Source: Escherichia coli O127:H6 str. E2348/69
Lineage (GTDB): Bacteria; Pseudomonadota; Gammaproteobacteria; Enterobacterales; Enterobacteriaceae
Length of the DNA stretch: 64,000 nt
Direction: 5' to 3' (one strand)
Assembly: GCF_000026545.1 (NCBI RefSeq)
Contig: NC_011601.1
Shown here: piece after piece, positions 1,301-60,105 of the stretch
Layout: each line of letters starts with the position of its first letter
Position numbering within the stretch: position 1 is the first letter of the stretch
Notes under the pieces: model-generated
The model's database searches: none
What the model was told of the DNA's origin: nothing
The model's input: only the letters and a program-made list of their open reading frames with translations
Position numbers and translations under genes: made by a program

Positions 1301-1360
1301 TTTAATAATTTATCCAATTCATTTTGGGTACAAAATGATAGTCAATATTCAGGTGAAACT

Positions 1361-2620
1361 ATGGCAAAGCTGACAGATATCCAAATCAAGTCATGGATTA
1401 AGGCAGGAGAACGCTTCGAGGGGCGCTCTGACGGCAACGGGCTATACCTTCGCTATCGAGTGGGGGATAAAGTGCCTGTATGGCGTTTTCGATATCAGTT
1501 CGCTGGGAAATCACGGGTAATGCTTATTGGATCTTATAGCGAAATATCCCTTTCCAAAGCACGGGAAATAGCCAAGGAATTATCCGCACGTGTAGCCCTG
1601 GGCTTCGATGTCGCCGGGGAAAAGAAAGCGCGAAAAGCGGCTGCTATAGAAAAGATGGAGCGGGAGAAAAACGCGCTTCGCGTGTCAGAGCTAGCAACCG
1701 AGTATTTCGAACGGCAGATTTTGGGACGCTGGAAACATCCCGATCTTCTGCGCCGGAGAATCGATAAGGATATCAACCCACATATTGGCAACATGAAGAT
1801 AGAGGACGTAAAACCCCGTCATATTGATGCGATGCTACAGAGCGTTGTTGATCGTGGCGCTCCAACCGTAGCTAATGACGTTCTGCGCTGGACTAAACGC
1901 ATATTCGATTATGCTATCAAGCGTCATGCACTGGAATTAAACCCAGCTGGAGCATTTGATCTGTCAGACGCTGGCGGGCAGGAAAGTAGCCGTATGCGCT
2001 GGCTGACCCGTGAAGAACTTATACGTTTTTTCCAAGCTATGCGCACTGCAAAAGGATTCAGCCGCGAGAACGAGCTGACCATGAAGCTAATCCTCTGCCT
2101 GTGTTGTCGCAAAATGGAGCTGTGCGGTGCTCAGTGGGATGAATTCGACCTTGATGAAGCAGTGTGGCATCTACCAGCAGAACGCGTTAAAAACGGCGAC
2201 GCTATTGATATACCACTACCTCCACCTGCGGTTGGTTGGTTGAGAGAGCTTCGCACTATCGCGGGCAGTGGGAGTAAATGGGTTCTCCCCGCGCGGAAGA
2301 TGCAACACCGCATGATTCCCCACATTCAGGAAAGCACACTCCCAGTGGCGCTGGCAAAAGTACGCCGCGAAATGCCAGAAGTACCAAACTTCACAATTCA
2401 CGATTTCAGGCGTACCGCCCGCACCCATTTAGCGGCGTTGGGTGTCGATCCCGTAGTCGCAGAACGTTGCCTGAATCACCGCATTAAAGGCGTTGAGGGT
2501 ATCTACAACCGCCACCAGTACTTTGAAGAACGACGGGCAGCCCTGGAACTGTGGGCGGGGCTTCTGGTTTCGCTTGAACGAGGGGAAAACTACAATGTTA
2601 TTCCTTTATCTAAAATATAA
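1361..2620 (+). CDS. int: Tyrosine recombinase, P4-type integrase (419 aa)
   Basis: N-terminus MAKLTDIQIKSWIKAGERFEGRSDGNGLYLRYRVGDKVPVWRFRYQFAGK typical of P4-family arm-binding domain; C-terminal HDFRRT...HRIKGVEGIYNRHQY catalytic motif; start set at ATG 1361 with RBS aggtgaa. Confidence 0.9.
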   Translation: MAKLTDIQIKSWIKAGERFEGRSDGNGLYLRYRVGDKVPVWRFRYQFAGKSRVMLIGSYSEISLSKAREIAKELSARVALGFDVAGEKKARKAAAIEKMEREKNALRVSELATEYFERQILGRWKHPDLLRRRIDKDINPHIGNMKIEDVKPRHIDAMLQSVVDRGAPTVANDVLRWTKRIFDYAIKRHALELNPAGAFDLSDAGGQESSRMRWLTREELIRFFQAMRTAKGFSRENELTMKLILCLCCRKMELCGAQWDEFDLDEAVWHLPAERVKNGDAIDIPLPPPAVGWLRELRTIAGSGSKWVLPARKMQHRMIPHIQESTLPVALAKVRREMPEVPNFTIHDFRRTARTHLAALGVDPVVAERCLNHRIKGVEGIYNRHQYFEERRAALELWAGLLVSLERGENYNVIPLSKI

Positions 2621-2635
2621 AAGTTTTGTTTGAAG

Positions 2636-2740
2636 GTATTCACCCTATTCACCTTTTTAATTAACTTCATGATTTTAAATAATAAAAAAGGGTGAATACT
2701 TACAGTAAAACTAATCACCTTAGTATTCACCTGTTCACCT
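2636..2740. repeat. Cluster of five GGTGAAYA-type motifs (TATTCACC x3, GGTGAATA, TGTTCACC) downstream of int
   Basis: Read directly from sequence; a similar cluster lies at 12150-12265 at the other end of the element. Confidence 0.45.
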
Positions 2741-3123
2741 TCTAAAGCTGCTGTGGCTGCTCCCCTTGCCCGAAAACACGCCAGCCACCAGCGTTAAAAA
2801 AAACTACAAAAATCATCATCGTACAGATCTGTACGATGACGCCAGCACTCACCCTACAAAACAACCTAACTTATTGATTTCAAAAGTAGAGAAAATCTGC
2901 TTTATGCCACTAGCTCGCACCCGTCCCCAAAAAGAAAAAGCCCGCGCTGGAGACGCACGGGCTTTTGGGTACCGATAACCATGTTTGGAATCAACTCATT
3001 GAGTTCTGACCTCAATTTGCATGTTATCACAAGAAAAACACATTGTAATAATTGCAACAACGAATATCATCATTGCATATAATGAAACATAAATATCCGA
3101 TAGAACATACTGAGGTCTGACCG

Positions 3124-3675
3124 ATGCAAGATATTACAAACATCGCAGTGACTGGCGAAGATGGCGTGGTGACGTATGCCGACGGCAGTAAAGAGGAGTT
3201 CCAGTGCAGCGGAACCGTTGCGACCATCATTGCAAGTCTTGCAACGACACTCGAGAAAGAACGCAAAATGCGCATCGCCACCGGCGACCGCCTGCGCCGC
3301 ATGTACACCCGCGACAGTGATATGATTTCCCGCGGTTTGAATGGCACGTCTGCTACTTCCACGGCACCGACAGCAATGAATGCTGAGTTCATGCGTCTGG
3401 TACGTGCCGTAGCGCCGAAATACGATTCAGCACTGCCCGACGCCGACCCGCGCATCGTTGCGCTCGATGTGCTGCGCTACGCCCCTGCTGAGGCGTTCAG
3501 CGCCGTACACCCTACCCCAATGTCAGAAATCCAGCTGGATCAGGCTATCGATATACTCGAGCAGGTTGGCGACTACATGAAAGCAAACAATATCGCTCCG
3601 AAAATAATTTCTACAGGAGACGCAATCCGCAGCATCAATGCTGACAACGCCACCTTCTGGGGCAAAAAACACTAA
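3124..3675 (+). CDS. Hypothetical protein, 183 aa (first gene of cargo operon)
   Basis: ORF of 183 aa, same strand and closely spaced with three downstream ORFs; no motif recognised. Confidence 0.6.
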   Translation: MQDITNIAVTGEDGVVTYADGSKEEFQCSGTVATIIASLATTLEKERKMRIATGDRLRRMYTRDSDMISRGLNGTSATSTAPTAMNAEFMRLVRAVAPKYDSALPDADPRIVALDVLRYAPAEAFSAVHPTPMSEIQLDQAIDILEQVGDYMKANNIAPKIISTGDAIRSINADNATFWGKKH

Positions 3676-3688
3676 AGAGATATGAAGC

Positions 3689-3877
3689 ATGTCTATCTAT
3701 GACCCGAAATTAGCCGCAGGCAACCCACAGCGCGCCCACCGCCCAATGCTGACCCGTCAGGATCTTGAAACGGCAAAGGCACGCAATAACTTCGATCGCC
3801 AGAGTCGCAACCTGCAGCAACTCAACGAATCAAATGCACGGTTCTGGAGTGAACAGAATGAGAAAGCCAAACGTTAA
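3689..3877 (+). CDS. Hypothetical small protein, 62 aa
   Basis: Small ORF 14 bp after previous stop; basic/charged composition; no recognised domain. Confidence 0.4.
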   Translation: MSIYDPKLAAGNPQRAHRPMLTRQDLETAKARNNFDRQSRNLQQLNESNARFWSEQNEKAKR

Positions 3878-4034
3878 GCCGGTCCTGCTGTCCGCCGAGC
3901 AGATGCAGGCCATACGCAACATTCAGGAACGTGAACGCCAGCGCTCCAATCTCGGCGTCGCTCCCACCGTTCACCAGATTGCCCGCGGCCTCATGGCTAA
4001 GGCTCTGGCCTCACTGGCAAGCGAGGGCGCGTAA
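3858..4034 (+). CDS. Hypothetical small protein, 58 aa (start taken at ATG 3858)
   Basis: RBS ggag 9 nt upstream of ATG 3858; its stop overlaps the start of the next gene (TAATG). Confidence 0.4.
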   Translation: MRKPNVKPVLLSAEQMQAIRNIQERERQRSNLGVAPTVHQIARGLMAKALASLASEGA

Positions 4035-4765
4035 TGGGCGCCATTCACCAGATATATGAGCAGGAAATGTTCTATAACTGGATAGGCGATGGTAAACGAT
4101 GTGTAGCATTCCACGAAGCGGGCCATGCAGTAGCCGCATGGCTTATTCGCTTAGATATGCAGGTTATCGCCATTATGGATGAATCCGGCTACGTTGCTGG
4201 CGAACATGTACATGAAGCCCAGTGTTTGGGCGTTGTTAAACACGGCATAATCCACAGCCACGATCTCAGGCGTTTGCGGGAGAGTAAATCTGGTGTAGTT
4301 GGGCACGATGGCAAAGTTATCCCTTTCATACGCTACTACGCGGAAGGTATAAAGCGCGATGCAACAAAGGCCGCTTTTGTAGCCCTCGCTGGACCAGTAA
4401 GCGAAGCCATTTACGAAAATAACGAAATTTTCAATATAAAGTATTCACTCCCTCACCGCTATGACATGGCTAACGTAAATGACATGCTCGATTTAATATG
4501 TGCCACGGATAAGCGAATTAACAGGAAGTTAATGCTTTCTAAACTTGTTGAAAAGACCAAATTCCTCATGACTCAATACTGGCCGGAAGTAGGAAAAATA
4601 GCGCATTTGCTTGAGCGGGATAACATTGTTAATGGCCGCGATGTTAGCTCGCTAATCGGCCTCAACGTCATTGACCGGGCAACGCCATTTTTGGTATCTG
4701 ACTTGAGCAGTACATTTGCTCATCTCCCGTACTCGTCCCTGCCTCCGAATGAATTAGCAACTTGA
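4034..4765 (+). CDS. Standalone FtsH-like (M41-type) zinc metallopeptidase domain protein, 243 aa, no AAA+ module
   Basis: VAFHEAGHAVAAWL closely matches the FtsH zinc-binding HEAGH motif; later ALAGPVSEAIYEN resembles the FtsH third-ligand region; no Walker A/B present. Confidence 0.55.
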   Translation: MGAIHQIYEQEMFYNWIGDGKRCVAFHEAGHAVAAWLIRLDMQVIAIMDESGYVAGEHVHEAQCLGVVKHGIIHSHDLRRLRESKSGVVGHDGKVIPFIRYYAEGIKRDATKAAFVALAGPVSEAIYENNEIFNIKYSLPHRYDMANVNDMLDLICATDKRINRKLMLSKLVEKTKFLMTQYWPEVGKIAHLLERDNIVNGRDVSSLIGLNVIDRATPFLVSDLSSTFAHLPYSSLPPNELAT

Positions 4766-4812
4766 AGACAGTAAAGTAGCCATGCATTTAACACGCATGG
4801 CTATGTGAACAT

Positions 4813-6036
4813 TTAAGAATTAGAGCGCTTAGGCGATCGCGTAAATTGCACTAAAGCCCCTTTATGATCGTTAGCCTGCACATCACGATGCTCAACCAAC
4901 ATAGATTTTAATTTTGCCAGATGCACAACAGCAGCCTTCTTGCCAGTCAGGTACCCCTCGGGCAAACCAGCAATCATTTCCACATCAATAGCAGATAAAC
5001 CTGCGAATGCAGCAAGCCGTTCAACTGAAATGATTCCAGACGATGCCAGCAATTCAATAGTACGTTTCAACAAACGTGGTTTTTCAGGCTCACGATAATC
5101 ATCTCCCGGCTCTGATTTCGCTCCCCAACGTGCTGAACGACGCTTATAAAGATTTTGTTTCTCTTCTTCCGTAATAATATGCAGCACATGTAAACGCATG
5201 ATACTTGCCGCAACGGAAATACCATAGCGTTGTTTAATTAAAAGCAAGCTATCTAATGTTACCGGGGTCCTAATTTCTTCGGCAAATGTCTCAGCAGGAA
5301 GCAGCAGTGCTCCCGCAAATTTATGAGCCTGACTTTCCTTCAGCTTATAACGTTCGGCTTCGAGTTCGTTGCCAACATAGCGGTGAAGGATCAGATGACC
5401 AATTTCGTGAGCAAGGTCAAATCTGCTACGAAAAGCATTACCTTTATCTGAAGAGAGGAGAACAAAAGGAACACCTAAAGTCTCACTCCAGGCAGAAAGC
5501 CCTTCAATCTGCGCAACGCCTGTTTCTTCTCTAATAACGATAATACCATTACTCTCTGCGGCTAAAGCAAGATCCGGTATTTCCTTTGTACCAAGATTCC
5601 AAAGAGCACGGCACTCATTAGCAGCGTCTTCAATATCTGCATCACTAATTTCATCAATGTTTGTAAAGCTACGACGCGGTAGTTTTAGCTCCGGCAGATC
5701 TACAAACTCAGTCAGCTTAGTAACTAACTCATTAGCCCAATGGATTCGAGTTTCTAACATTGCTCGTGCAGCTACATGAGCTGATGCATTGCTTCTGAAC
5801 AGAGGCTTTGACATCCCCTTCAACAGAGGGCGCGTAAACCATTCAGGTGTAACATTTACGACAGTGGCCAGACGTTCTAAAGCCTCAGACTCTGGAGCCT
5901 GTTGACCGGAACGCCATTTGCTAATGGTTGCTGGTGATACACCCACCATAGTAGCTAATTGAGTTTGTGATAGCCGCCGGGCGGCTAGTACCTGTGCTAA
6001 CCTGCCCGGTTGAAATTCGGCGACGCCTCGGCTCAT
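4813..6036 (-). CDS. XRE-family HTH fused to ImmA/IrrE (M78-type) metallopeptidase, with ~150-aa C-terminal extension (407 aa)
   Basis: N-terminal LSQTQLATMVGVSPATISKWRSG helix-turn-helix; FDLAHEIGHLILHRY HExxH motif typical of ImmA/IrrE peptidases. Confidence 0.75.
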   Translation of the reverse strand: MSRGVAEFQPGRLAQVLAARRLSQTQLATMVGVSPATISKWRSGQQAPESEALERLATVVNVTPEWFTRPLLKGMSKPLFRSNASAHVAARAMLETRIHWANELVTKLTEFVDLPELKLPRRSFTNIDEISDADIEDAANECRALWNLGTKEIPDLALAAESNGIIVIREETGVAQIEGLSAWSETLGVPFVLLSSDKGNAFRSRFDLAHEIGHLILHRYVGNELEAERYKLKESQAHKFAGALLLPAETFAEEIRTPVTLDSLLLIKQRYGISVAASIMRLHVLHIITEEEKQNLYKRRSARWGAKSEPGDDYREPEKPRLLKRTIELLASSGIISVERLAAFAGLSAIDVEMIAGLPEGYLTGKKAAVVHLAKLKSMLVEHRDVQANDHKGALVQFTRSPKRSNS

Positions 6037-6680
6037 ACATTATCTTCCTCGGTTCCATCTTTTCTGATAATGCCCCTTTTGAGCCCAGGGAATGCATTAT
6101 CTTCTTGGGACGGAACTACATCATATCGGGTTAAAAAAAGTTCAAGTGGCTCATGAAAAACCCAGCGCTTCCCATCAGAACTTGGTACAACAAGCTCTAT
6201 AGACATCGGAGCTTCAGGCTGAATCTGCAACGAACCGGAAAAACGGCATACTACGAACAGTGTAGCTTTTGGCACATCAGAACCATCGGAGAATAAATCC
6301 GGTTGCACCATTTTTTCCACAAACACGTTCTCAGAAATGAGTTCTTGCTTACGTTTGCTACGGAATAATCTCTTCCACTGGTTATCATTGTAGCTTTCAC
6401 GAACAATCGTGAATATACCACTATGGCCTTCTACAATACGGTTACCACGCAGCTTTCCAGGATTACAACCGTTGGCCTCAAACACCTCATAAATAGTTTC
6501 ATTCAGGTTTAAATGACGATCATAACCAAGCGCGGTCGATCTGTGATCTAGCTTCTTCTTTTGAGCATAATCGTAAGAACGCTTTGATGCCGCGTAAATC
6601 GCGTCAGAAAGGGCCATGAAGAGTTGTTTTGAAACATTCTGAACGATGAGATCTGCCACTTTGGATTTTTTCACGACCAT
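6033..6680 (-). CDS. Hypothetical protein, 215 aa, translationally coupled upstream partner of the HTH-ImmA gene
   Basis: ORF of 215 aa; its stop overlaps the downstream start (ATGA at 6033-6036); no recognised motif. Confidence 0.6.
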   Translation of the reverse strand: MVVKKSKVADLIVQNVSKQLFMALSDAIYAASKRSYDYAQKKKLDHRSTALGYDRHLNLNETIYEVFEANGCNPGKLRGNRIVEGHSGIFTIVRESYNDNQWKRLFRSKRKQELISENVFVEKMVQPDLFSDGSDVPKATLFVVCRFSGSLQIQPEAPMSIELVVPSSDGKRWVFHEPLELFLTRYDVVPSQEDNAFPGLKRGIIRKDGTEEDNV

Positions 6681-6683
6681 TTC

Positions 6684-6702
6684 CTATCACTGTCACTGAT
6701 AG
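6684..6702. promoter_or_regulatory. Inverted repeat CTATCA-N7-TGATAG overlapping the RBS/start region of the 215-aa gene (candidate operator)
   Basis: Read directly from sequence immediately adjacent to the start codon at 6680. Confidence 0.25.
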
Positions 6703-7209
6703 CCGTGATTTTATATCAGTATTTTTTCGTGTGTCCATAACGCAATCAATTATTTTTTCCTTTGTCAGCAAGAATTATATAAAAAGCACTATCATGACAG
6801 GATTTGGGCCACTAACCTTTCACAGACTCTTGAAGTCCTAGAAAAAAGCAATGGCACAAGGTGTCCTTGCCGGGAGAAAAATCATCTGGCTACCAGCAAC
6901 CTTATAGATTCCAGATCAACGTAATATCAAAGTAAAACGTCCATTTCCGGTACCATATTTGGTCATTACGACGGGGGAAACTTATACCCACTGCTGCCCC
7001 ATCGTCAGCGCCGACAGGGACCTATGCCGCAAGGTATAAGGCAAAATTGGCATTTTCGCTATTCCCCCTGCCCGTATTTTTTGGCTTACTGGAATTTCTC
7101 TATCTAACACAATGAACTTGAGGCTATTCCGACAGGGAGAAAAGCGATCTACGCCTGACCGCCTGCCTCAGCAATCATCCAGGCAAGTACGTGTGTAAGG
7201 CTAACGCGA

Positions 7210-7890
7210 ATGAGTGATTTTTATTCCCCTCTACCAAGCTATGATCTTGTCCGGGCAGCGGAGATGCTGACTGATAAGGGGGCAAATTGTACCGGTAACG
7301 ATTTATTGGAACTATGGAACCAAGGCGTTATCGAGTTGTGTTTTTCTCTGCCGGACTACATTGCTTGTGAAGATGTTAATTTTCCCGGGCATGGTCACAG
7401 CATTTTGTTATCCGTGGATCCGATTAGCTTCAACCTTTTCTGGCTAAATGTTGATTACCCACCGAACTTAAATGCTAACTTTTCTGTGAAAGAATATGGC
7501 TCAGATAGTGAATTCCATGAGCAGTCCCTATGGATACCAACAGAACCGCACTACAACACTCACCATGATAACGGGGAAGGGCTTTGCGAAGCGTTAAGGA
7601 ATACTTATGGCCGGGAAAATTTACGAATACCAGGTGTCGAATTGCAAAAGGTTTGGCGCTTTTTGATCGGTCAGCCTTATGAAAAAAAGCCAACGCCTGA
7701 GCGTATCACCGCTAAGCAATGCCGCTTTATCGTCGCATTACTCAGATCGTATAACCTGACTGACGATGATTTTAAGGGGAGCATTAGGGACCTGAGAATT
7801 AAGATATCTAACCGGATCCCTTCAATCGGTGATCCTGAAATCGATGATAATACCCTTACTGACTGGCTGAAGAAGGGAGGGGTTCGGTAG
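7210..7890 (+). CDS. Hypothetical protein, 226 aa
   Basis: Isolated ORF upstream of alpA, preceded by ~530-bp AT-rich intergenic region; no recognised motif. Confidence 0.55.
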   Translation: MSDFYSPLPSYDLVRAAEMLTDKGANCTGNDLLELWNQGVIELCFSLPDYIACEDVNFPGHGHSILLSVDPISFNLFWLNVDYPPNLNANFSVKEYGSDSEFHEQSLWIPTEPHYNTHHDNGEGLCEALRNTYGRENLRIPGVELQKVWRFLIGQPYEKKPTPERITAKQCRFIVALLRSYNLTDDDFKGSIRDLRIKISNRIPSIGDPEIDDNTLTDWLKKGGVR

Positions 7891-7992
7891 CTGAGTTTTC
7901 ATAACTCCGATGAGTTTTCAATAACTCCCCCACCCGTAACCACCTACCCCGTAGCCTTGCGATTACCTTCTCACTCAATAGCAGGTAATCGC

Positions 7993-8205
7993 ATGAAATC
8001 GCAAACTTTCACCTTTCCTACCAATGGCAACGCACGAGCCAAACAAGTGGCGCACTATCTTGGAGTGCATATCAGCACCGTATGGCGCTATGCAAAACGT
8101 CCTGATTTTCCAAAACCCCACCAGTTAACCGACGGCGTGACCGTCTTTGACGCCGCAGCTATTCGCCAATGGAACAAGCAAAAAACCGGGGGTGAGAATG
8201 CTTAA
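7993..8205 (+). CDS. alpA: AlpA-family phage transcriptional regulator / excisionase-like DNA-binding protein (70 aa)
   Basis: KQVAHYLGVHISTVWRYAKRPDFPKPHQLTDGVTVFDAAAIRQW is the AlpA-type HTH pattern; start set at ATG 7993. Confidence 0.8.
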   Translation: MKSQTFTFPTNGNARAKQVAHYLGVHISTVWRYAKRPDFPKPHQLTDGVTVFDAAAIRQWNKQKTGGENA

Positions 8206-8259
8206 CGCGACCGTGAGCACACCCTGCACGACAGCCGTTCGATCTCCATTGTTGGCGGG

Positions 8260-8454
8260 TCAGGCTTTCGGCTCAATACCCAGCCGCTGGAGTTCTTTGC
8301 GCCCCAAGGTTTTCATCCAATTAGCTAAACTCATACCTGCATCTCGTGCGGCGGCCTCGAATTGCTCTTTCAATTCTGGGGCGATCCTCACTTGGAAAGC
8401 TGGTGCCTTTCCCCTGCCTTTGGGCTGTTTATCACGCTGTATTACTGTTGACAT
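8260..8454 (-). CDS. Small ribbon-helix-helix-like protein (64 aa), opposite strand to the replication operon
   Basis: FQVRIAPELKEQFEAAARDAGMSLANWMKTLGRK resembles RHH (Arc/CopG-type) strand-helix-helix; start chosen at internal Met. Confidence 0.4.
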   Translation of the reverse strand: MSTVIQRDKQPKGRGKAPAFQVRIAPELKEQFEAAARDAGMSLANWMKTLGRKELQRLGIEPKA

Positions 8455-8588
8455 GTATGTACCTATTAAACTAAGATTCAAATCAATAGGTACGCACCTT
8501 AACATGTTAAGGTCAGAAAAGACAACGCCCCGTAGTGCTCGCAACACATACGGGGCGTCTAACCAACAACGTTACGGAGACTAACGCT

Positions 8589-8789
8589 ATGGCTAAGCCG
8601 CAGTGTACCCAAACTCACCCCAAATATCAGTATCGTTTTATGGCGCTCGATCGCGCTGACCGCCAGGCAAAACCCTGCAAAATCATTGTTGAGGCCACCA
8701 GCGAGCATGAAGCACGTAAGGTGTTGGCACCTCACTACATCCTGTCACTGTCCGCCGTTTTGCCAGTTCAGGAGGTGAGCCATGTTTAA
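8589..8789 (+). CDS. Hypothetical small protein (66 aa), satellite replication-module operon
   Basis: RBS ggaga upstream of ATG 8589; overlaps next ORF. Confidence 0.5.
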   Translation: MAKPQCTQTHPKYQYRFMALDRADRQAKPCKIIVEATSEHEARKVLAPHYILSLSAVLPVQEVSHV

Positions 8790-8976
8790 TGTCATTGTCA
8801 CGGTCACCTATCACTTTTCGGGAACGATCCGTCGTTTTGCTATTCCGGAACGTTTCAATAATCGTGAGCTCGCAGAGAAAGCGGCGCAGCAGTTAACCCA
8901 TACCAGCTATCTGGATGATGGAGTGAGCAGAATTGTGACCCACGCGGCGGAAGTAGTGGAGGTGCGCCATGTATGA
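8782..8976 (+). CDS. Hypothetical small protein (64 aa)
   Basis: Strong RBS caggaggtg; overlapping start/stop with neighbours. Confidence 0.55.
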   Translation: MFNVIVTVTYHFSGTIRRFAIPERFNNRELAEKAAQQLTHTSYLDDGVSRIVTHAAEVVEVRHV

Positions 8977-9157
8977 CGCCTACCTGAACCCAAAGGACGC
9001 ACTCCGTCCGATCGCCGTTGCACTCGAGGCTGCGCAGTTTATCGCGCTTGACCCGGAGAATACCGATTTAGCCCATGAGCTGATCGCCTGGGCACTTGAA
9101 ACAGCCGCGCGTGCCTCAGCTGCGCAACGTAACACCCCGGAGGTGGACAATGCTTAA
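8969..9157 (+). CDS. Hypothetical small protein (62 aa)
   Basis: RBS ggaggtg upstream; translationally coupled. Confidence 0.5.
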   Translation: MYDAYLNPKDALRPIAVALEAAQFIALDPENTDLAHELIAWALETAARASAAQRNTPEVDNA

Positions 9158-9458
9158 TCTCAATACATGGAATCTTTTCACGCTGCCGCTGAACGGTGGC
9201 GCAGCTGAGACAGCGCCGGACGATCTGCGTCTGCTGGCCGCTGTGGGGGACGAGGCTCGCAACAACTACCTGCGCGGTGTAAGCGCCATCGGCAATCTGA
9301 TCTTCTGGGCATGTGATAACCCCAACTACACCGACCATCAAGCTGACCTGCCAGCGCTGGGCGCATTCCTGAAACATACCGCTGATATGGCGCGCGCTGC
9401 CGAATTCATGGCAGGACATCTGGACTCACTGGCTGACGGCAAAGAGGGAGGCAAATAA
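9150..9458 (+). CDS. Hypothetical protein (102 aa)
   Basis: RBS ggaggtg before ATG 9150; stop overlaps next start. Confidence 0.55.
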   Translation: MLNLNTWNLFTLPLNGGAAETAPDDLRLLAAVGDEARNNYLRGVSAIGNLIFWACDNPNYTDHQADLPALGAFLKHTADMARAAEFMAGHLDSLADGKEGGK

Positions 9459-9679
9459 TGCCACGCAAACATCGCTCATCAAGCAACCTGATCAAATTAA
9501 TGGAACGCCAGAAAGGTATAGGGCGCGACGATATCCAGATCGCAGATAATCGCCCTACATTCATGCCGTACGAGCCGAACGGAACCTACGCTACAAACCG
9601 CCATACCCGCCGTATGCTACGCAAGCTCCACGGCATCCAGGCAAAAAGAATGTGTGATCTGAAAGGAGGTCAGAAATGA
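9458..9679 (+). CDS. Hypothetical small basic protein (73 aa)
   Basis: RBS gagggagg; stop overlaps primase start (ATGA). Confidence 0.5.
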   Translation: MPRKHRSSSNLIKLMERQKGIGRDDIQIADNRPTFMPYEPNGTYATNRHTRRMLRKLHGIQAKRMCDLKGGQK

Positions 9680-12090
9680 GTGGATTCGATCACCTGATGG
9701 AGCAGGGGCAGAAACGCACCCCTGCTCGTTTTACTGCAAATAGCTTTTCTGACCTGTGCAACGCTATTCTATCGCATCGTGTGCAAATTTCCATCACACA
9801 GGAAATGACGGATGAAGAACGGCGCAAAGAAAAGCAGAAACTGTACTGGTTCTCGGCAACTACCCAGCAGGACGGGCAGCGACGTAAACCCGAAAACATG
9901 GCACCGTGTGCTTTCGGTATGCTGGACATTGACGGCAGCACTCCCGGTGCAATCACAGCACTTGTACAGGTGTTCCGGCGATACTCAATGCTGGTGTACC
10001 AGACGGCCAGCTATACGACGGATGAACCTCGTCTGCGTATTGTGTGCGAGCTTTCCCGAGCGGTTGAATCTGACTACCGCCGAGCGACAGGCGAATCCAT
10101 AGAAACTTTGTTGATGCAGGAGGCTGGATTCTCATTCGCCAGCCTGGCGGATAAGAAAGCACGCTGGGAGAACGGCAGCGATTATGTTGTCTTTGACCGC
10201 AATGTATACGGCGCTCAAAGCTATTGCTACTGTCCACACACTGGAGCGAAAGCCCAGAATTACGCGGGCGCGGTAATCGACGTAGGGGCGTTACCGGAAC
10301 CCGCCCAGCCACCAGCGAAGGCGGCCAAAAGCAAGGCAAAGAAACAGCGCCAGCGTGACGCCGCGGCGGTAATAGATGCTGATTTTGACGATCTGAGCGC
10401 CGGACCGGATAACTTCCTTATCGCCGACCTGCGCAGCGCACTCTGGTTTCCCTCCATGCTGCAAAAGGCATGGGACAATGGGGCGTGGATTGAGCAGGGC
10501 TACCGCCTTGCATCTCTCAAAGGCACCGATTTTGAGGACGACGCGCGGCAACTGTGGGTCGAGTGGTCATTGACCGCAGCGGATGGCTGGCCTGATGAAG
10601 AACTTGATGAAGTCGCGGCACAACGCTGGAATGGTCTCGCCCCTGACAAAACCAGCTATAAAGCTATTTTTACTGATGCTCAGGCGCAGGGGTGGAATAA
10701 TCCGGGCAAATGGCGAGCAAAGGCCGCGTACATTGAGAAAATGGCCCCCAGCACACGCGGTGAACTGCTGGCGCAATATTACGGCAACGTATGCCTGAAA
10801 GCTGATGGCAACATGGTTTATCACTATACCGGGCAGGTGTGGGAGCACATCGCCGATGCCGAGTTGCGCCGCCAGCTTTCGCAGATTTTCAAAGATAACG
10901 GGGTCCCCTTTACACCGTACGAGGTTAAAAGCGCGATTGAGGCTATGGGAATGCTTCTGCCTTTAATGGGAGAAACTCCTCGTAACCTGATTGGCTTTGC
11001 CAACGGCGTTTATGATCTCGAGGCGCAGCGATTCCGCCCCCACTGCCCAGACGATTGGCTGACCAGCCATAACGGCGTTGAATACACGCAGCCGGTTAAA
11101 GGCGAAACCCTGAAAAACAATGCCCCAAACTTCTGGCGCTGGCTGCATCATTCCGCAGGGGGCGACTTCGACAAAATGGAGAGAATCAAAGCCGCTCTGT
11201 ATATGGTGCTGGCAAACCGCTACGACTGGCAACTGTTCATCGAGGTTACCGGTGCTGGTGGCAGTGGTAAAAGCGTGTTCACGGGTATTGCACGTATGCT
11301 GACGGGCGAACTACACGCCACCAGCGGCACAATGGAGGACATGGACACCGCGCGCGAACGCGCATCTTTTGTCGGCAAAAGCCTGATCACCCTACCCGAC
11401 CAAGCAACATATACGGGTTCCGGGCCGGGTATCAAGGCTATAACGGGCGGCGACGTGGTAAGGATCGACCCAAAGCACGAAAAGCCATTCCATACGGTTA
11501 TTCGCGCCGTTGTCATCGCAACAAACAACGAACCTATGCGTTTCACCGAACGACAAGGCGGGATATCGCGGCGCCGGGTTATTTTCCCGTTTAACCATGA
11601 AGTGCCGGAGGCGGAACGTGATCCCCATCTGCTCGATAAAATTAAAGCCGAACTGCCGGTAATCGTCCGTGGTCTGCTGATTGACTTCGAACAGCCAGGC
11701 AAAGCCAAATCGCTACTTATCGCGCAGCGTGATTCAGCGGAAGCGCTGCAGGTGAAGAACGATAACGACCCGATGTATGGCTTTTGCTCTTACCTGCTAG
11801 GTTTGCCGAATCCCGAGGGCATGTACATGGGCGATGGGCGCATGGCGCGAGAGCCACGCATCTACCTCTATCATGCTTATCTGGCCTATCTGGAAGCCTA
11901 CGGTTATCAGAGAACCCCCACCCTACCGAAGTTCAGCGGAGATTTACGGGACACGCTCAAAGCCTTTGGTATTACTCTGGACAGTAAAAAGAGTAAAAAG
12001 GGCAAAAGATATAACGTCAATTTGTCTGACAGGGCACAAGAATGGCTGGGAGAAGACGAACTCTCAGCTGTGCCCGACACATTGCAGTAA
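9676..12090 (+). CDS. P4 alpha-like bifunctional DNA primase/helicase (804 aa)
   Basis: Walker A GAGGSGKS in the C-terminal half; size and architecture typical of P4-alpha-type replication proteins; RBS aaggagg. Confidence 0.85.
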   Translation: MSGFDHLMEQGQKRTPARFTANSFSDLCNAILSHRVQISITQEMTDEERRKEKQKLYWFSATTQQDGQRRKPENMAPCAFGMLDIDGSTPGAITALVQVFRRYSMLVYQTASYTTDEPRLRIVCELSRAVESDYRRATGESIETLLMQEAGFSFASLADKKARWENGSDYVVFDRNVYGAQSYCYCPHTGAKAQNYAGAVIDVGALPEPAQPPAKAAKSKAKKQRQRDAAAVIDADFDDLSAGPDNFLIADLRSALWFPSMLQKAWDNGAWIEQGYRLASLKGTDFEDDARQLWVEWSLTAADGWPDEELDEVAAQRWNGLAPDKTSYKAIFTDAQAQGWNNPGKWRAKAAYIEKMAPSTRGELLAQYYGNVCLKADGNMVYHYTGQVWEHIADAELRRQLSQIFKDNGVPFTPYEVKSAIEAMGMLLPLMGETPRNLIGFANGVYDLEAQRFRPHCPDDWLTSHNGVEYTQPVKGETLKNNAPNFWRWLHHSAGGDFDKMERIKAALYMVLANRYDWQLFIEVTGAGGSGKSVFTGIARMLTGELHATSGTMEDMDTARERASFVGKSLITLPDQATYTGSGPGIKAITGGDVVRIDPKHEKPFHTVIRAVVIATNNEPMRFTERQGGISRRRVIFPFNHEVPEAERDPHLLDKIKAELPVIVRGLLIDFEQPGKAKSLLIAQRDSAEALQVKNDNDPMYGFCSYLLGLPNPEGMYMGDGRMAREPRIYLYHAYLAYLEAYGYQRTPTLPKFSGDLRDTLKAFGITLDSKKSKKGKRYNVNLSDRAQEWLGEDELSAVPDTLQ

Positions 12091-12109
12091 CTTGTAAAAA
12101 ATCACCAAG

Positions 12110-12132
12110 AACCCCGTAAATCGGGGTTTTTG
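12110..12132 (+). terminator. Rho-independent terminator after the primase gene
   Basis: Hairpin aaccccg-taaa-tcggggtt followed by ttttt. Confidence 0.65.
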
Positions 12133-12149
12133 TCTATTTATTAGTCTGA

Positions 12150-12265
12150 AAGGGTGAACAGGTGCGCATACCTTAACAAAGCTGTTCACTCTAATAATTT
12201 TCTTTAATATCAGTACACTACCCGCAATAAGTGAACAGATGGACGGGGTGAACACTTCACACCTA
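12150..12265. repeat. Cluster of GGTGAACA-type motifs (four to five copies, both orientations) near the attR end
   Basis: Read from sequence; mirrors the motif cluster at 2636-2740. Confidence 0.4.
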
Positions 12266-12405
12266 TAGCGCGAAATATTTTAATATTTGCAGTTGAATTG
12301 CAATCCTTGAAAACAGAAACGCGTAGCAAAACGTAGAGTGCTGAAAAAATTTTGTTGGGGAGCAGTTCAAACTGCATGAGCAATTTTCAAGCACTCCTCT
12401 TTGTC

Positions 12406-12424
12406 TTGTACCCAAGACTGTACC
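12406..12424 (+). repeat. attR core: second copy of 19-bp direct repeat TTGTACCCAAGACTGTACC
   Basis: Exact match to 1282-1300. Confidence 0.75.
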
Positions 12425-12655
12425 CAATAGAAAAAATAGAAAATAAAAACTCAGCAATAGCAGCGATTGGTTACACTACTCAACATTCAGATTCAACTCG
12501 TAACGCCAATTCTTACTTTTCAGCCTTCACAAATGCCGCCCACTCAAACAGAGCGGCATTTTTCTTCCCCGCAACTTCAATTCTGTTTTGCGTGCCTGCT
12601 CCAGATTTTGCGATGTTTTTTTGCCCAGCGCAGTGAGAACGTGAGATACTCACAA

Positions 12656-56805: not shown

Positions 56806-58816
56806 TTACCGTTCCTAATACTTTAAGTTCGATATTATTCCCAACCTCCTGAAAAGAGAGCACGGGGACTGACGGGAACGAACCTTCAATCATTTTCTTC
56901 ACATAGCGCCTGATATCTAAAGCGGTCAGAATGACGCCGTTCCCCGTTGGATTCATGATATTTTTTAAGAAGCCAATTATCTGCTCAGTTCGCTCCGGTG
57001 AGATATTCAGATACGAACCTGATGACGTTTGTCTGATCGACTCTCGTAGCTCATTTTCAATATCAGAGCCAATAAGCCAAACGTTCAGAAGTGTACCGCT
57101 AACGCTATAGCGACCTAAAATATGCCGACGCAGGGCGATACGAACGTATTCGCACAAGATAACCACATCCTTTTCTTTTGTTGACCAAAAAATAAGCGTC
57201 TCAAAGATAGTTCTCAGATCTCTAATTGAGACATTTTCCTCTACGAGACGTTGTAGAATGTCAACAATTTTGCTCAAACCAAGCTGGCGCTGCAGCTCTT
57301 TCACAAGCTCGTTATATTTTCTCTCCATGATGTCCATCAAATAACGCGTTTCTTGTACGCCGATGAACTCTTTGGCATTAGACAATACAAGTTTCTTTAG
57401 CAAAAACGTTATCTTATCATTTGTTGTTGCATAAACATCCATACCTGTAAGGTGAGCGAGTTGTTGATTAGTCTTATTCGTCTTATATACGATAGAGTTA
57501 GTCGAAAGCTTTTCCTGGACAAATTCGAATGATATCTCTGCATGCCCAGCCTCAAAATAGACAGTATCATCTATAAGAGTATCTTTGTATATTGACTCTT
57601 GATAGAGCAAAAATTCTATTGCGCTATCATTATTTTTAACCGGATTAACAATAATCTTAGGCAATGGAATTCCACTTTCCTCAAAGAAATTCCAACGCAT
57701 GACCTCAATTTGCTGTGTAATGTCTGAACTATAAATATTACTACTTAAGTTTAAAATCAATGGCTCAGCGCCCGGTGAGATGTTTTGGCTATTAGACAAA
57801 TCAGCTCCCATAGCATCCTTATTATTGCCAGCTCCAAATGTTCTTTTCTTCTGTAATTTCCAGGCTATCCCCAACAGGCAAACCGCCAGAAATAAGAAGA
57901 CCAATGTAGGAAAGCCCGGAATAATCGCCATTACGAGCATTAGTGCGGCACTGATTAAAAAAGGGCGACTATTAACAGAAACCTGTTGAACAATATCACC
58001 TGCAAGGTTTTCTTCTTTTTCGCTTTCACCGGGCACACGAGTAACAACCACGCCCGCGGTGACAGAAATAATAAGCGCAGGGATCTGGGCAACCAAAGCA
58101 TCACCGACAGACAATACAGAAAACAGGCTAAGTGCCTCACTAAATGGCATGTCAAATTGCCACATACCAATGAGCACGCCACCAAAAAGGTTAACTAAAA
58201 CAATAATGATACCAGCAATAGCGTCCCCTTTTACAAACTTCATCGCCCCGTCCATTGAACCATAAAACTGGCTTTCCTTTTGCACTCGGGAGCGAAGAAC
58301 TTTTGCCTCAAGCGGGTCAATAACGCCTGCGCGCATATCACCATCAATACTCATTTGCTTTCCTGGCATACCATCAAGGGAAAAACGAGCACTCACTTCA
58401 GCAACACGCTCGGCCCCTTTTGTAATAACCATAAATTGAACAATGGTGATAATAGTAAAAATAACCAGGCCAACAACAATATTACCGCCAACAACAAAGT
58501 TACCGAAGGAGTAAATAATGTCACCCGCATCGTGATGCAGCAGAATAAGTCTGGTTGTACTAACACTGAGCGACAGGCGCATCAACGTCGTAATCAACAG
58601 GATTGTGGGGAAAGAAGTTAGTTCAAGAGGATTTTTTATATAGATTGAGAGCATTAATAAAAGTAAAGCTGTCGAAATATTAATCGCGATAATGATATCC
58701 ACCACAACTGTTGGTAGTGGAATAATCATCATCATTACAGCCATAAAGAAGAAGAGAGCCAGAATAAGATCGTGATATGACTCTGCTTTTTTAAATATAT
58801 TTAAGAGTTTATTCAT
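56789..58816 (-). CDS. escV: T3SS export gate EscV, FlhA/InvA family (675 aa)
   Basis: N-terminal polytopic membrane domain plus large cytoplasmic domain. Confidence 0.95.
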   Translation of the reverse strand: MNKLLNIFKKAESYHDLILALFFFMAVMMMIIPLPTVVVDIIIAINISTALLLLMLSIYIKNPLELTSFPTILLITTLMRLSLSVSTTRLILLHHDAGDIIYSFGNFVVGGNIVVGLVIFTIITIVQFMVITKGAERVAEVSARFSLDGMPGKQMSIDGDMRAGVIDPLEAKVLRSRVQKESQFYGSMDGAMKFVKGDAIAGIIIVLVNLFGGVLIGMWQFDMPFSEALSLFSVLSVGDALVAQIPALIISVTAGVVVTRVPGESEKEENLAGDIVQQVSVNSRPFLISAALMLVMAIIPGFPTLVFLFLAVCLLGIAWKLQKKRTFGAGNNKDAMGADLSNSQNISPGAEPLILNLSSNIYSSDITQQIEVMRWNFFEESGIPLPKIIVNPVKNNDSAIEFLLYQESIYKDTLIDDTVYFEAGHAEISFEFVQEKLSTNSIVYKTNKTNQQLAHLTGMDVYATTNDKITFLLKKLVLSNAKEFIGVQETRYLMDIMERKYNELVKELQRQLGLSKIVDILQRLVEENVSIRDLRTIFETLIFWSTKEKDVVILCEYVRIALRRHILGRYSVSGTLLNVWLIGSDIENELRESIRQTSSGSYLNISPERTEQIIGFLKNIMNPTGNGVILTALDIRRYVKKMIEGSFPSVPVLSFQEVGNNIELKVLGTVNDFRA

Positions 58817-59166
58817 GATGTCATCCTGCGAACGCGCTCAATAATCTGCACATGCTGTTGAAAAGTATTCATTAGAAAAAAAACATCGATATTGGTTAAC
58901 AAACAACTTAAGCACAATTTATTATCGTAGACAAAAATATGTTCAATCACTCCCTGCGTACGCTCAGGAGCAAGGGCACTAAAGAAAGAGAAAAATGCGT
59001 TTTCGTTATACTCTAAAGCAAACGTAACAAAAACATTATTATCAATTATTTCAATAAAAAAAGAAAACCCATTAAAATCAATTTCAACACGGTTATCAAA
59101 TAAATAAAAATCATTTCCCAACAATCTTAAAAACTCTTCAACATTTCTTTTAACTAAAAGATTCAT
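58813..59166 (-). CDS. cesL: LEE Orf12 (CesL), first gene of LEE3 (117 aa)
   Basis: Position at head of LEE3 upstream of escV. Confidence 0.7.
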   Translation of the reverse strand: MNLLVKRNVEEFLRLLGNDFYLFDNRVEIDFNGFSFFIEIIDNNVFVTFALEYNENAFFSFFSALAPERTQGVIEHIFVYDNKLCLSCLLTNIDVFFLMNTFQQHVQIIERVRRMTS

Positions 59167-59350
59167 CTGCAGGCTCTGAAGTAAGTATACGTGTGAATAT
59201 TATTGCTTGAAAAAGCGTATTGGATAATATATACAGTATATGTACTTTATGTACATTGCAACTATTTAAATAATATAATAGTTGCCTATGGGATAATTTG
59301 GTTATTTATAACCAGGTAAATGTCTAAATTAGACAAAAGGAGAAAGATCA
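59167..59350. promoter_or_regulatory. Divergent LEE2/LEE3 promoter region
   Basis: AT-rich intergenic region between divergent orf12 and espZ. Confidence 0.5.
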
Positions 59351-59647
59351 ATGGAAGCAGCAAATTTAAGCCCTTCTGGTGCAGTATTACCACTGGCAGC
59401 CACAATCAATGGAAATAATCCAGTGGATGAGAAGACAGGGGTGATGCAGTCAGAAGGTGGAACAAGTCGCAGCGTTAGAATCCTGGGTGGAGTTTTAATA
59501 GGTGCAGGTGTTCTAGCCGCTATCGGTACTGGTATCGCAGCAATGTGTGTTGACGACCCTTCACAAAGATTAGGCTTAGGAATCGCAGCCGGTGTATTAG
59601 GTGGCGTAACTACTGTTGCCGGCGGATTAGCGATGAAATATGCCTAA
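59351..59647 (+). CDS. espZ: T3SS effector EspZ (SepZ), 98 aa, two transmembrane segments
   Basis: 98-aa ORF with two hydrophobic helices; first gene of LEE2. Confidence 0.85.
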   Translation: MEAANLSPSGAVLPLAATINGNNPVDEKTGVMQSEGGTSRSVRILGGVLIGAGVLAAIGTGIAAMCVDDPSQRLGLGIAAGVLGGVTTVAGGLAMKYA

Positions 59648-59676
59648 TCATCGCATCGCATAAAAATAGAGAGGTA

Positions 59677-60105
59677 ATGGATGCATTATGCTATTGCCTC
59701 TCTCATGAAAAGAGACTAACAGTAAATATGAATAATATTAATCAATCGGAAAACATTAATATTCAGTTAAATAAAGCATCCCAAACAAATGTCGTTGATG
59801 AGCATATCCCGTTAGCATCAACCCCCTCTGCAGCCGGAGCGGCTCAGTTTCTTGATCAATTACTCCCTAAAACGGCGGGAGTGTCTTCCCCAGAACAAGT
59901 GTTGATTGAGGAAATTAAAAAGCGACATCTTGCAACAATGAACACCGATCTCAGTTTCGATGCACTATCTGCAGGTGGGCTCTCGCCCGAAGATGTACTC
60001 ACTTTACAAAAGAATGTGCTCAACGCAAACGTCAATGTTGATGTCGTATCTAAGTTAGCAAGCCTCCTTTCAACATCGGTTACAAAATTAGTTTCGATGC
60101 AATAA
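59677..60105 (+). CDS. escI: T3SS inner rod protein EscI (rOrf8), 142 aa
   Basis: LEE2 order; RBS gagagg upstream of ATG 59677. Confidence 0.75.
   Translation: MDALCYCLSHEKRLTVNMNNINQSENINIQLNKASQTNVVDEHIPLASTPSAAGAAQFLDQLLPKTAGVSSPEQVLIEEIKKRHLATMNTDLSFDALSAGGLSPEDVLTLQKNVLNANVNVDVVSKLASLLSTSVTKLVSMQ

Follow-up and report, generated by a model that had tools for sequence, protein, structure and literature searches.

The 184-bp stretch at 59167-59350 is very probably the divergent LEE2/LEE3 promoter region of EPEC E2348/69. This control region is already known and has been studied since 1999, E2348/69 being the strain in which it was first characterised. What is added here is a map at base level, which places both promoters in the gap between cesL and espZ and the Ler operator inside cesL, and which separates two kinds of AT-richness. 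The regulatory region is larger than the gap and includes about 150 bp of the cesL coding sequence, where Ler binds. Much of the type III secretion machinery of EPEC and EHEC is turned on from this region, which also serves as a model for the way in which Ler counteracts silencing by H-NS. All positions given below are those of the window, that is, the whole stretch of 64,000 nucleotides that was analysed.

The genes that flank the gap, cesL (orf12/mpc) and escV on one side and espZ (sepZ) and escI on the other, diverge from it as they do in the LEE2/LEE3 region. A 1.1-kb query spanning the gap was 100% identical over 1101 bp to the E2348/69 chromosome NZ_CP059840.2. In the RefSeq annotation of this strain, cesL is followed by escV, escN and further genes (LEE3), and espZ by sctI(escI)-escJ-sepD-escC-cesD (LEE2). 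The ORF ends give exact coordinates to the 184-bp gap that the sequence-only reading had placed between divergent orf12/cesL and espZ, and they agree with it. The basic features of the locus are the following.

58813-59166, minus strand: cesL (orf12/mpc), first gene of LEE3, an ORF of 117 codons annotated as cesL in the identical E2348/69 record
59167-59350, unstranded: cesL-espZ intergenic gap of 184 bp, containing both core promoters and both 5' leaders
59351-59647, plus strand: espZ (sepZ), first gene of LEE2, an ORF of 98 codons annotated as SepZ/EspZ by RefSeq in the identical record

Small ORFs within the gap, 26-39 aa long and with TTG starts in three of the four, were rejected as not credible. 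Further along LEE2, the longest ORF for escI/rorf8 begins at 59677 (142 aa), and the RefSeq start lies at 59728 (125 aa). With regard to the wider window, the LEE insertion site is marked by the tRNA-Sec gene (selC) at 38278-38372, and a degenerate fragment of an IS3-family transposase lies at about 38700-38996, between selC and espF. The espF gene itself (39280-39891) is flagged by RefSeq as incomplete, with its C-terminus missing, possibly because its proline-rich repeats affected annotation or assembly. A small integrative element resembling P4-like satellites, and unrelated to the LEE, occupies about 1360-12640, between yicC and dinD; it contains a tyrosine integrase, a primase-family protein, an Icd-like cell-division inhibitor and many hypothetical genes.

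The positions of the two transcription starts were reconstructed from the numbering used in later papers, anchored by the oligonucleotides and primers printed there, and are good to about ±4 bp. For LEE2, two anchors are available. Cordeiro et al. 2011 (Table S1, PMC3219716) list seven 30-mers, LeeA-LeeG, that cover the Ler footprint determined with DNase I by Sperandio et al. 2000, which spans LEE2 -221 to -101. Each of the seven has an exact match on the minus strand, and together they cover 59022-59141, so that -101 of the footprint corresponds to 59141/2 and +1 of LEE2 to 59242/3. The primers of the Lee1192 fragment, given as LEE2 -591 to +581 (Garcia et al. 2012), were mapped in O157 Sakai and then transferred to the window, and they place +1 of LEE2 at 59240-59244. 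For LEE3, the fragment made with primer LEE3 F begins at +83 (Levine et al. 2014). This primer begins at 59142, which puts +1 of LEE3 at about 59224, and the EHEC and EPEC sequences align without indels from 59142 to 59224. Neither the window nor the Sakai locus contains a match to the reverse primer LEE3 R (ATAAATAATCTCCGCATGCT) with up to three mismatches, and the forward primer is the sole LEE3 anchor. The resulting starts are as follows.

59240-59244, plus strand: LEE2 transcription start (about 59242/3), from the footprint and Lee1192 anchors, which agree within 5 bp; leader of about 108 nt to the espZ ATG
59220-59228, minus strand: LEE3 transcription start (about 59224), from LEE3 F at +83; leader of about 58 nt to the cesL ATG

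Thus, both starts lie within 59167-59350, back to back, about 19 bp apart and in opposite directions. The sequence-only reading had named mapped starts elsewhere as the result that would speak against promoters in this gap; the published numbering puts both of them inside it. With regard to the short LEE3 leader, no recognisable Shine-Dalgarno sequence precedes the cesL ATG (CTTACTTCAGAGCCTGCAG-ATG; 59167-59185, minus strand).

A spacing of 19 bp between the starts forces the -10 regions of both promoters onto 59226-59240. PMC10084759, citing Sperandio 2000, likewise states that the -10 boxes of the divergent LEE2 and LEE3 promoters overlap. Within this block, an 11-bp palindrome offers a -10 element on each strand, and together these points bear out the earlier view that the two promoters overlap. 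The exact hexamers of the two promoters are probably to be sought among the following candidates.

59230-59240, unstranded: 11-bp palindrome TATACAGTATA, giving TATACA on the plus strand (59230-35) as candidate LEE2 -10 and TATACT on the minus strand (59240-35) as candidate LEE3 -10
59231-59226, minus strand: TATATT, an alternative candidate LEE3 -10 from the consensus scan
59207-59212, plus strand: TTGAAA, candidate LEE2 -35 hexamer, 17 bp 5' of TATACA and fitting a start at 59242/3

Among nine aligned LEE lineages, TTGAAA is invariant, and so is the palindrome TATACAGTATA except for a single C/T difference in the O26 lineage. The candidate LEE2 -10, TATACA, lacks the conserved final T and is for that reason absent from the list of matches produced by the consensus scan. 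The best match of that scan on the plus strand was TGTACA-18-TATAAT (59250-59279), with 10 of 12 consensus positions. Promoter-like matches were not enriched (3 found, 2.7 expected from shuffles), and the scan alone therefore gives no statistical support.

The DNA protected by Ler lies outside 59167-59350. The whole footprint falls in the coding sequence of cesL, a position that is upstream with respect to LEE2 and downstream with respect to the LEE3 start, and it is in this respect that our map departs from the boundaries stated earlier, which had taken the 184-bp gap as the regulatory region.

59022-59141, unstranded: Ler DNase I-protected region, 121 bp, LEE2 -221 to -101, defined by exact matches to LeeA-LeeG
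59040-59049, minus strand: ATAATTGATA, the 10-bp core of the LeeH duplex solved with the Ler C-terminal domain (PDB 2LEV), an exact match

The ATAATTGATA core is invariant in the nine aligned LEE lineages. It has been reported that the Ler C-terminal domain favours A-tracts or AT-tracts uninterrupted by TpA, and that TpA steps weaken its binding (Cordeiro et al., PMC3219716). The footprint DNA has 78% A+T, an A-tract coverage of 47.5% (within the top 0.5% of the 120-bp windows of the LEE) and 8% TpA. By comparison, A-tract coverage is 19% in the gap and 14% in the promoter core, where TpA reaches 20%. Thus, the AT-richness of the gap is chiefly a matter of TpA steps, and that of the Ler operator one of A-tracts; these are two kinds of AT-rich DNA. 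It is because its dense A-tracts and scarcity of TpA match the preference of Ler that the footprint is found in cesL and not in the gap. The same stretch of cesL stands out in composition: the local G+C minimum (22.8%) falls at 58980-59163, within the coding sequence and outside the gap, and the first ~150 bp (5') of cesL have 22% G+C. This minimum is also one of the densest A-tract clusters of the LEE and coincides with the Ler footprint. The coincidence of an A-tract cluster in coding DNA with the footprint indicates that the N-terminal codons of CesL double as a regulatory site.

The sequence-only reading had described these promoters as silenced by H-NS and activated by Ler, and published experiments say the same. 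H-NS acts as a repressor of LEE2 and LEE3, to which it binds, and Ler relieves this repression; Ler occupies the same LEE2 region as H-NS with higher affinity, disrupting the H-NS complex, and the length of DNA that it wraps is roughly 117-150 bp. In K-12, where the LEE2 promoter is almost silent, Ler raises its activity 76-fold. In an EHEC microarray, Ler activated the LEE2 and LEE3 genes 5-8-fold. Footprinting, EMSA and reporter data with Ler have been published for exactly this DNA. The composition is of the AT-rich, A-tract type expected of an H-NS-silenced, Ler-activated promoter, with 71% A+T in the gap and 78% in the footprint. The H-NS high-affinity motif TCGWTWAATT had no match in 58900-59450 with up to one mismatch, and its count over the whole window equalled that expected by chance.

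Together, the map and the literature suggest the following course of events. Two promoters of the sigma-70 type diverge from the gap, with LEE3 transcribed to the left from about 59224 and LEE2 to the right from about 59242, and their -10 elements share the TA-rich palindrome block at 59226-59240. In the repressed state, H-NS would coat the AT-rich DNA around the promoters, silencing both LEE2 and LEE3. Ler produced from LEE1 would then assemble as an oligomer on the ~121 bp of A-tract-rich DNA at 59022-59141, and its binding would remodel or displace the H-NS complex, so that RNA polymerase could use both promoters. The shared -10 block would presumably admit only one polymerase at a time.

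The claim that the gap is extremely AT-rich needs to be qualified. In favour of it, the gap has 28.8% G+C (71.2% A+T), versus 46.3% for the window and 39.8% for its LEE part, and a G+C content as low or lower is found in 1.8% of all 184-bp windows and in 4.6% of those in the LEE part. Against it, when the 13 intergenic gaps in the LEE that measure 40 bp or more are ranked by G+C (20-38%), this one is only the fifth lowest; the whole LEE has 38-40%. The word 'extremely' is therefore relative. The two AT-rich companions proposed near tir and sepL proved to be true intergenic gaps: the tir-map gap at 51483-51808 (326 bp) has 26.4% G+C, and the sepL-escD gap at 44764-44905 (142 bp) has 29.6%. The lowest 184-bp window in the 64 kb, with 19.6% G+C, is located in the tir-map gap, upstream of LEE5 (51567-51750), and so is the peak in A-tract coverage (55% over 120 bp from 51629). 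We also looked for helical phasing of A-tracts. Compared with dinucleotide-preserving shuffles, there was no excess Fourier power at 10-11.5 bp in 58990-59170, in 59167-59350 or in both combined; the test is a crude one, and by it A-tract phasing does not support intrinsic curvature.

Comparison between genomes shows that the gap is strongly conserved. It is present as one copy per genome in 696 LEE-positive E. coli genomes, and its identity is at least 99% in 423 of them. Between EPEC and O157:H7 the gap is 100% identical, versus only 70% for espZ from the same strains. In the diverged lineages, identity is 92-93% for the gap as a whole and 98-99% for its core (59200-59290), versus 76-80% at third-codon positions of cesL. 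That the gap and its core are far better conserved than the third-codon positions of cesL and than espZ argues for purifying selection acting on the promoter block, as judged from these alignments. The same region is carried by E. albertii and by one Escherichia sp., the only returns of an exact-pattern genome scan that did not recover Citrobacter rodentium.

Several other observations concern variation at this locus. Between EPEC and O157:H7, cesL and the gap are 99-100% identical. The espZ gene is hypervariable, with 58-68% identity at third-codon positions in most lineages. In E. coli TB354, an 18-bp tandem duplication, TTATGTACATTGCAACTA, at about 59247 brings the gap to 201 bp; it follows closely on the LEE2 start and is upstream of LEE3. 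In addition, a direct repeat, GCGTATTGGATAAT and GCCTATGGGATAAT, occurs at 59215-59228 and 59284-59297. Its copies are 69 bp apart and may be due to chance; the second includes the extended -10-like sequence TGGGATAAT.

The leader of LEE2 contains three palindromes followed by the ribosome-binding site of espZ.

59258-59285, plus strand: perfect 9-bp inverted repeat GCAACTATT...AATAGTTGC, at LEE2 +16 to +43 and upstream of LEE3
59296-59316, plus strand: second palindrome or hairpin, core GGTTATTTATAACC, also in the leader of LEE2
59321-59335, plus strand: third palindrome or hairpin, TGTCTAAATTAGACA, immediately 5' of the espZ ribosome-binding site
59336-59343, plus strand: espZ Shine-Dalgarno region AAAGGAGA, from the sequence

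The leader folds as three consecutive hairpins with -23.6 kcal/mol (z = -1.84), and 11 of 200 shuffled sequences fold equally well. The LEE3 leader showed no structure (z = 0.05). It is conceivable that the palindromes at 59258-59335 form a cis element of their own, either as an operator for a dimeric regulator of LEE3/LEE2 or as an RNA leader governing translation of espZ or stability of its mRNA, and the succession of three perfect inverted repeats is what makes this worth considering. Furthermore, both arms of the first repeat are invariant, and a 5-bp deletion (59271-59275) found in two lineages, 14EC007 and E. albertii, is confined exactly to its loop. In the third hairpin, the sole change seen, in E. 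albertii, is at a loop position. On the other hand, the z-score is modest, and Escherichia sp. MOD1-EC7003 has two uncompensated changes that break hairpin 2, in which F2_81 carries one uncompensated change. No compensatory changes in the LEE2 leader hairpins were found among the aligned LEE lineages, which vary little. Rfam 15 covariance models gave no match in 58500-60000 at E-values up to 1, and we found nothing specific in the literature on CsrA or on leader-level control of espZ. Finally, the constraints imposed by the promoters and by H-NS and Ler explain the high conservation equally well. We therefore regard a separate cis element as improbable. The particular roles that one could assign to it, that is, an operator biasing the choice between the overlapping promoters, or a leader controlling espZ independently of Ler and H-NS, are very improbable.

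Two other readings of the gap deserve attention. According to one, LEE2 is served by tandem promoters, so that the leader contains more functional promoters and the start at about 59242 is not the sole or main one. The candidates would be TGTACA-18-TATAAT, the best plus-strand match mentioned above, with a start near 59286, and TGGGATAAT (59289-59297), of the form TGnGATAAT, with a start near 59304. Both are conserved across the lineages, and extra promoter-like sites are common in AT-rich DNA bound by H-NS, which counts in favour of this possibility. However, all three coordinate anchors, which come from two laboratories, point to about 59242, and promoter-like matches occur only as often as in shuffled sequence, so that tandem promoters seem unlikely to us. 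The other reading would dismiss the AT-richness as the background of a horizontally acquired island, combined with relaxed constraint on intergenic DNA, and would grant it no specific regulatory role. The unremarkable rank of the gap among the LEE gaps, in an island that is itself low in G+C, is what one would expect in this case. Nevertheless, relaxed constraint is at odds with a gap that is far better conserved than the neighbouring synonymous sites and espZ, and the published Ler footprinting, EMSA and reporter data on this very DNA contradict this reading; we consider it extremely unlikely. An AT-rich pair of divergent promoters, silenced by H-NS and de-silenced by Ler from within cesL, is thus the reading that we retain.

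The LEE2/LEE3 region known from EPEC E2348/69 (Mellies 1999; Sperandio 2000; Bustamante 2001) is the same locus as the one described here, without differences. Silencing of proU and bgl by H-NS, with sites on both sides of the start, resembles the situation at LEE2/LEE3, where AT-rich tracts flank the starts. There are also differences: the high-affinity H-NS motif of the proU type has no match at LEE2/LEE3, and Ler does not de-repress proU or bgl (PMC3219716). A further parallel is LEE5 (tir), which, like LEE2/LEE3, has AT-rich upstream DNA, is silenced by H-NS and is de-silenced by Ler, with Ler binding an extended tract of ~120 bp (-190 to -70) upstream of the promoter. LEE5, however, is a single promoter, whereas at LEE2/LEE3 a single Ler site acts on two promoters that stand back to back, and this site, unlike that of LEE5, is located downstream of one of the two promoters and inside a coding sequence.
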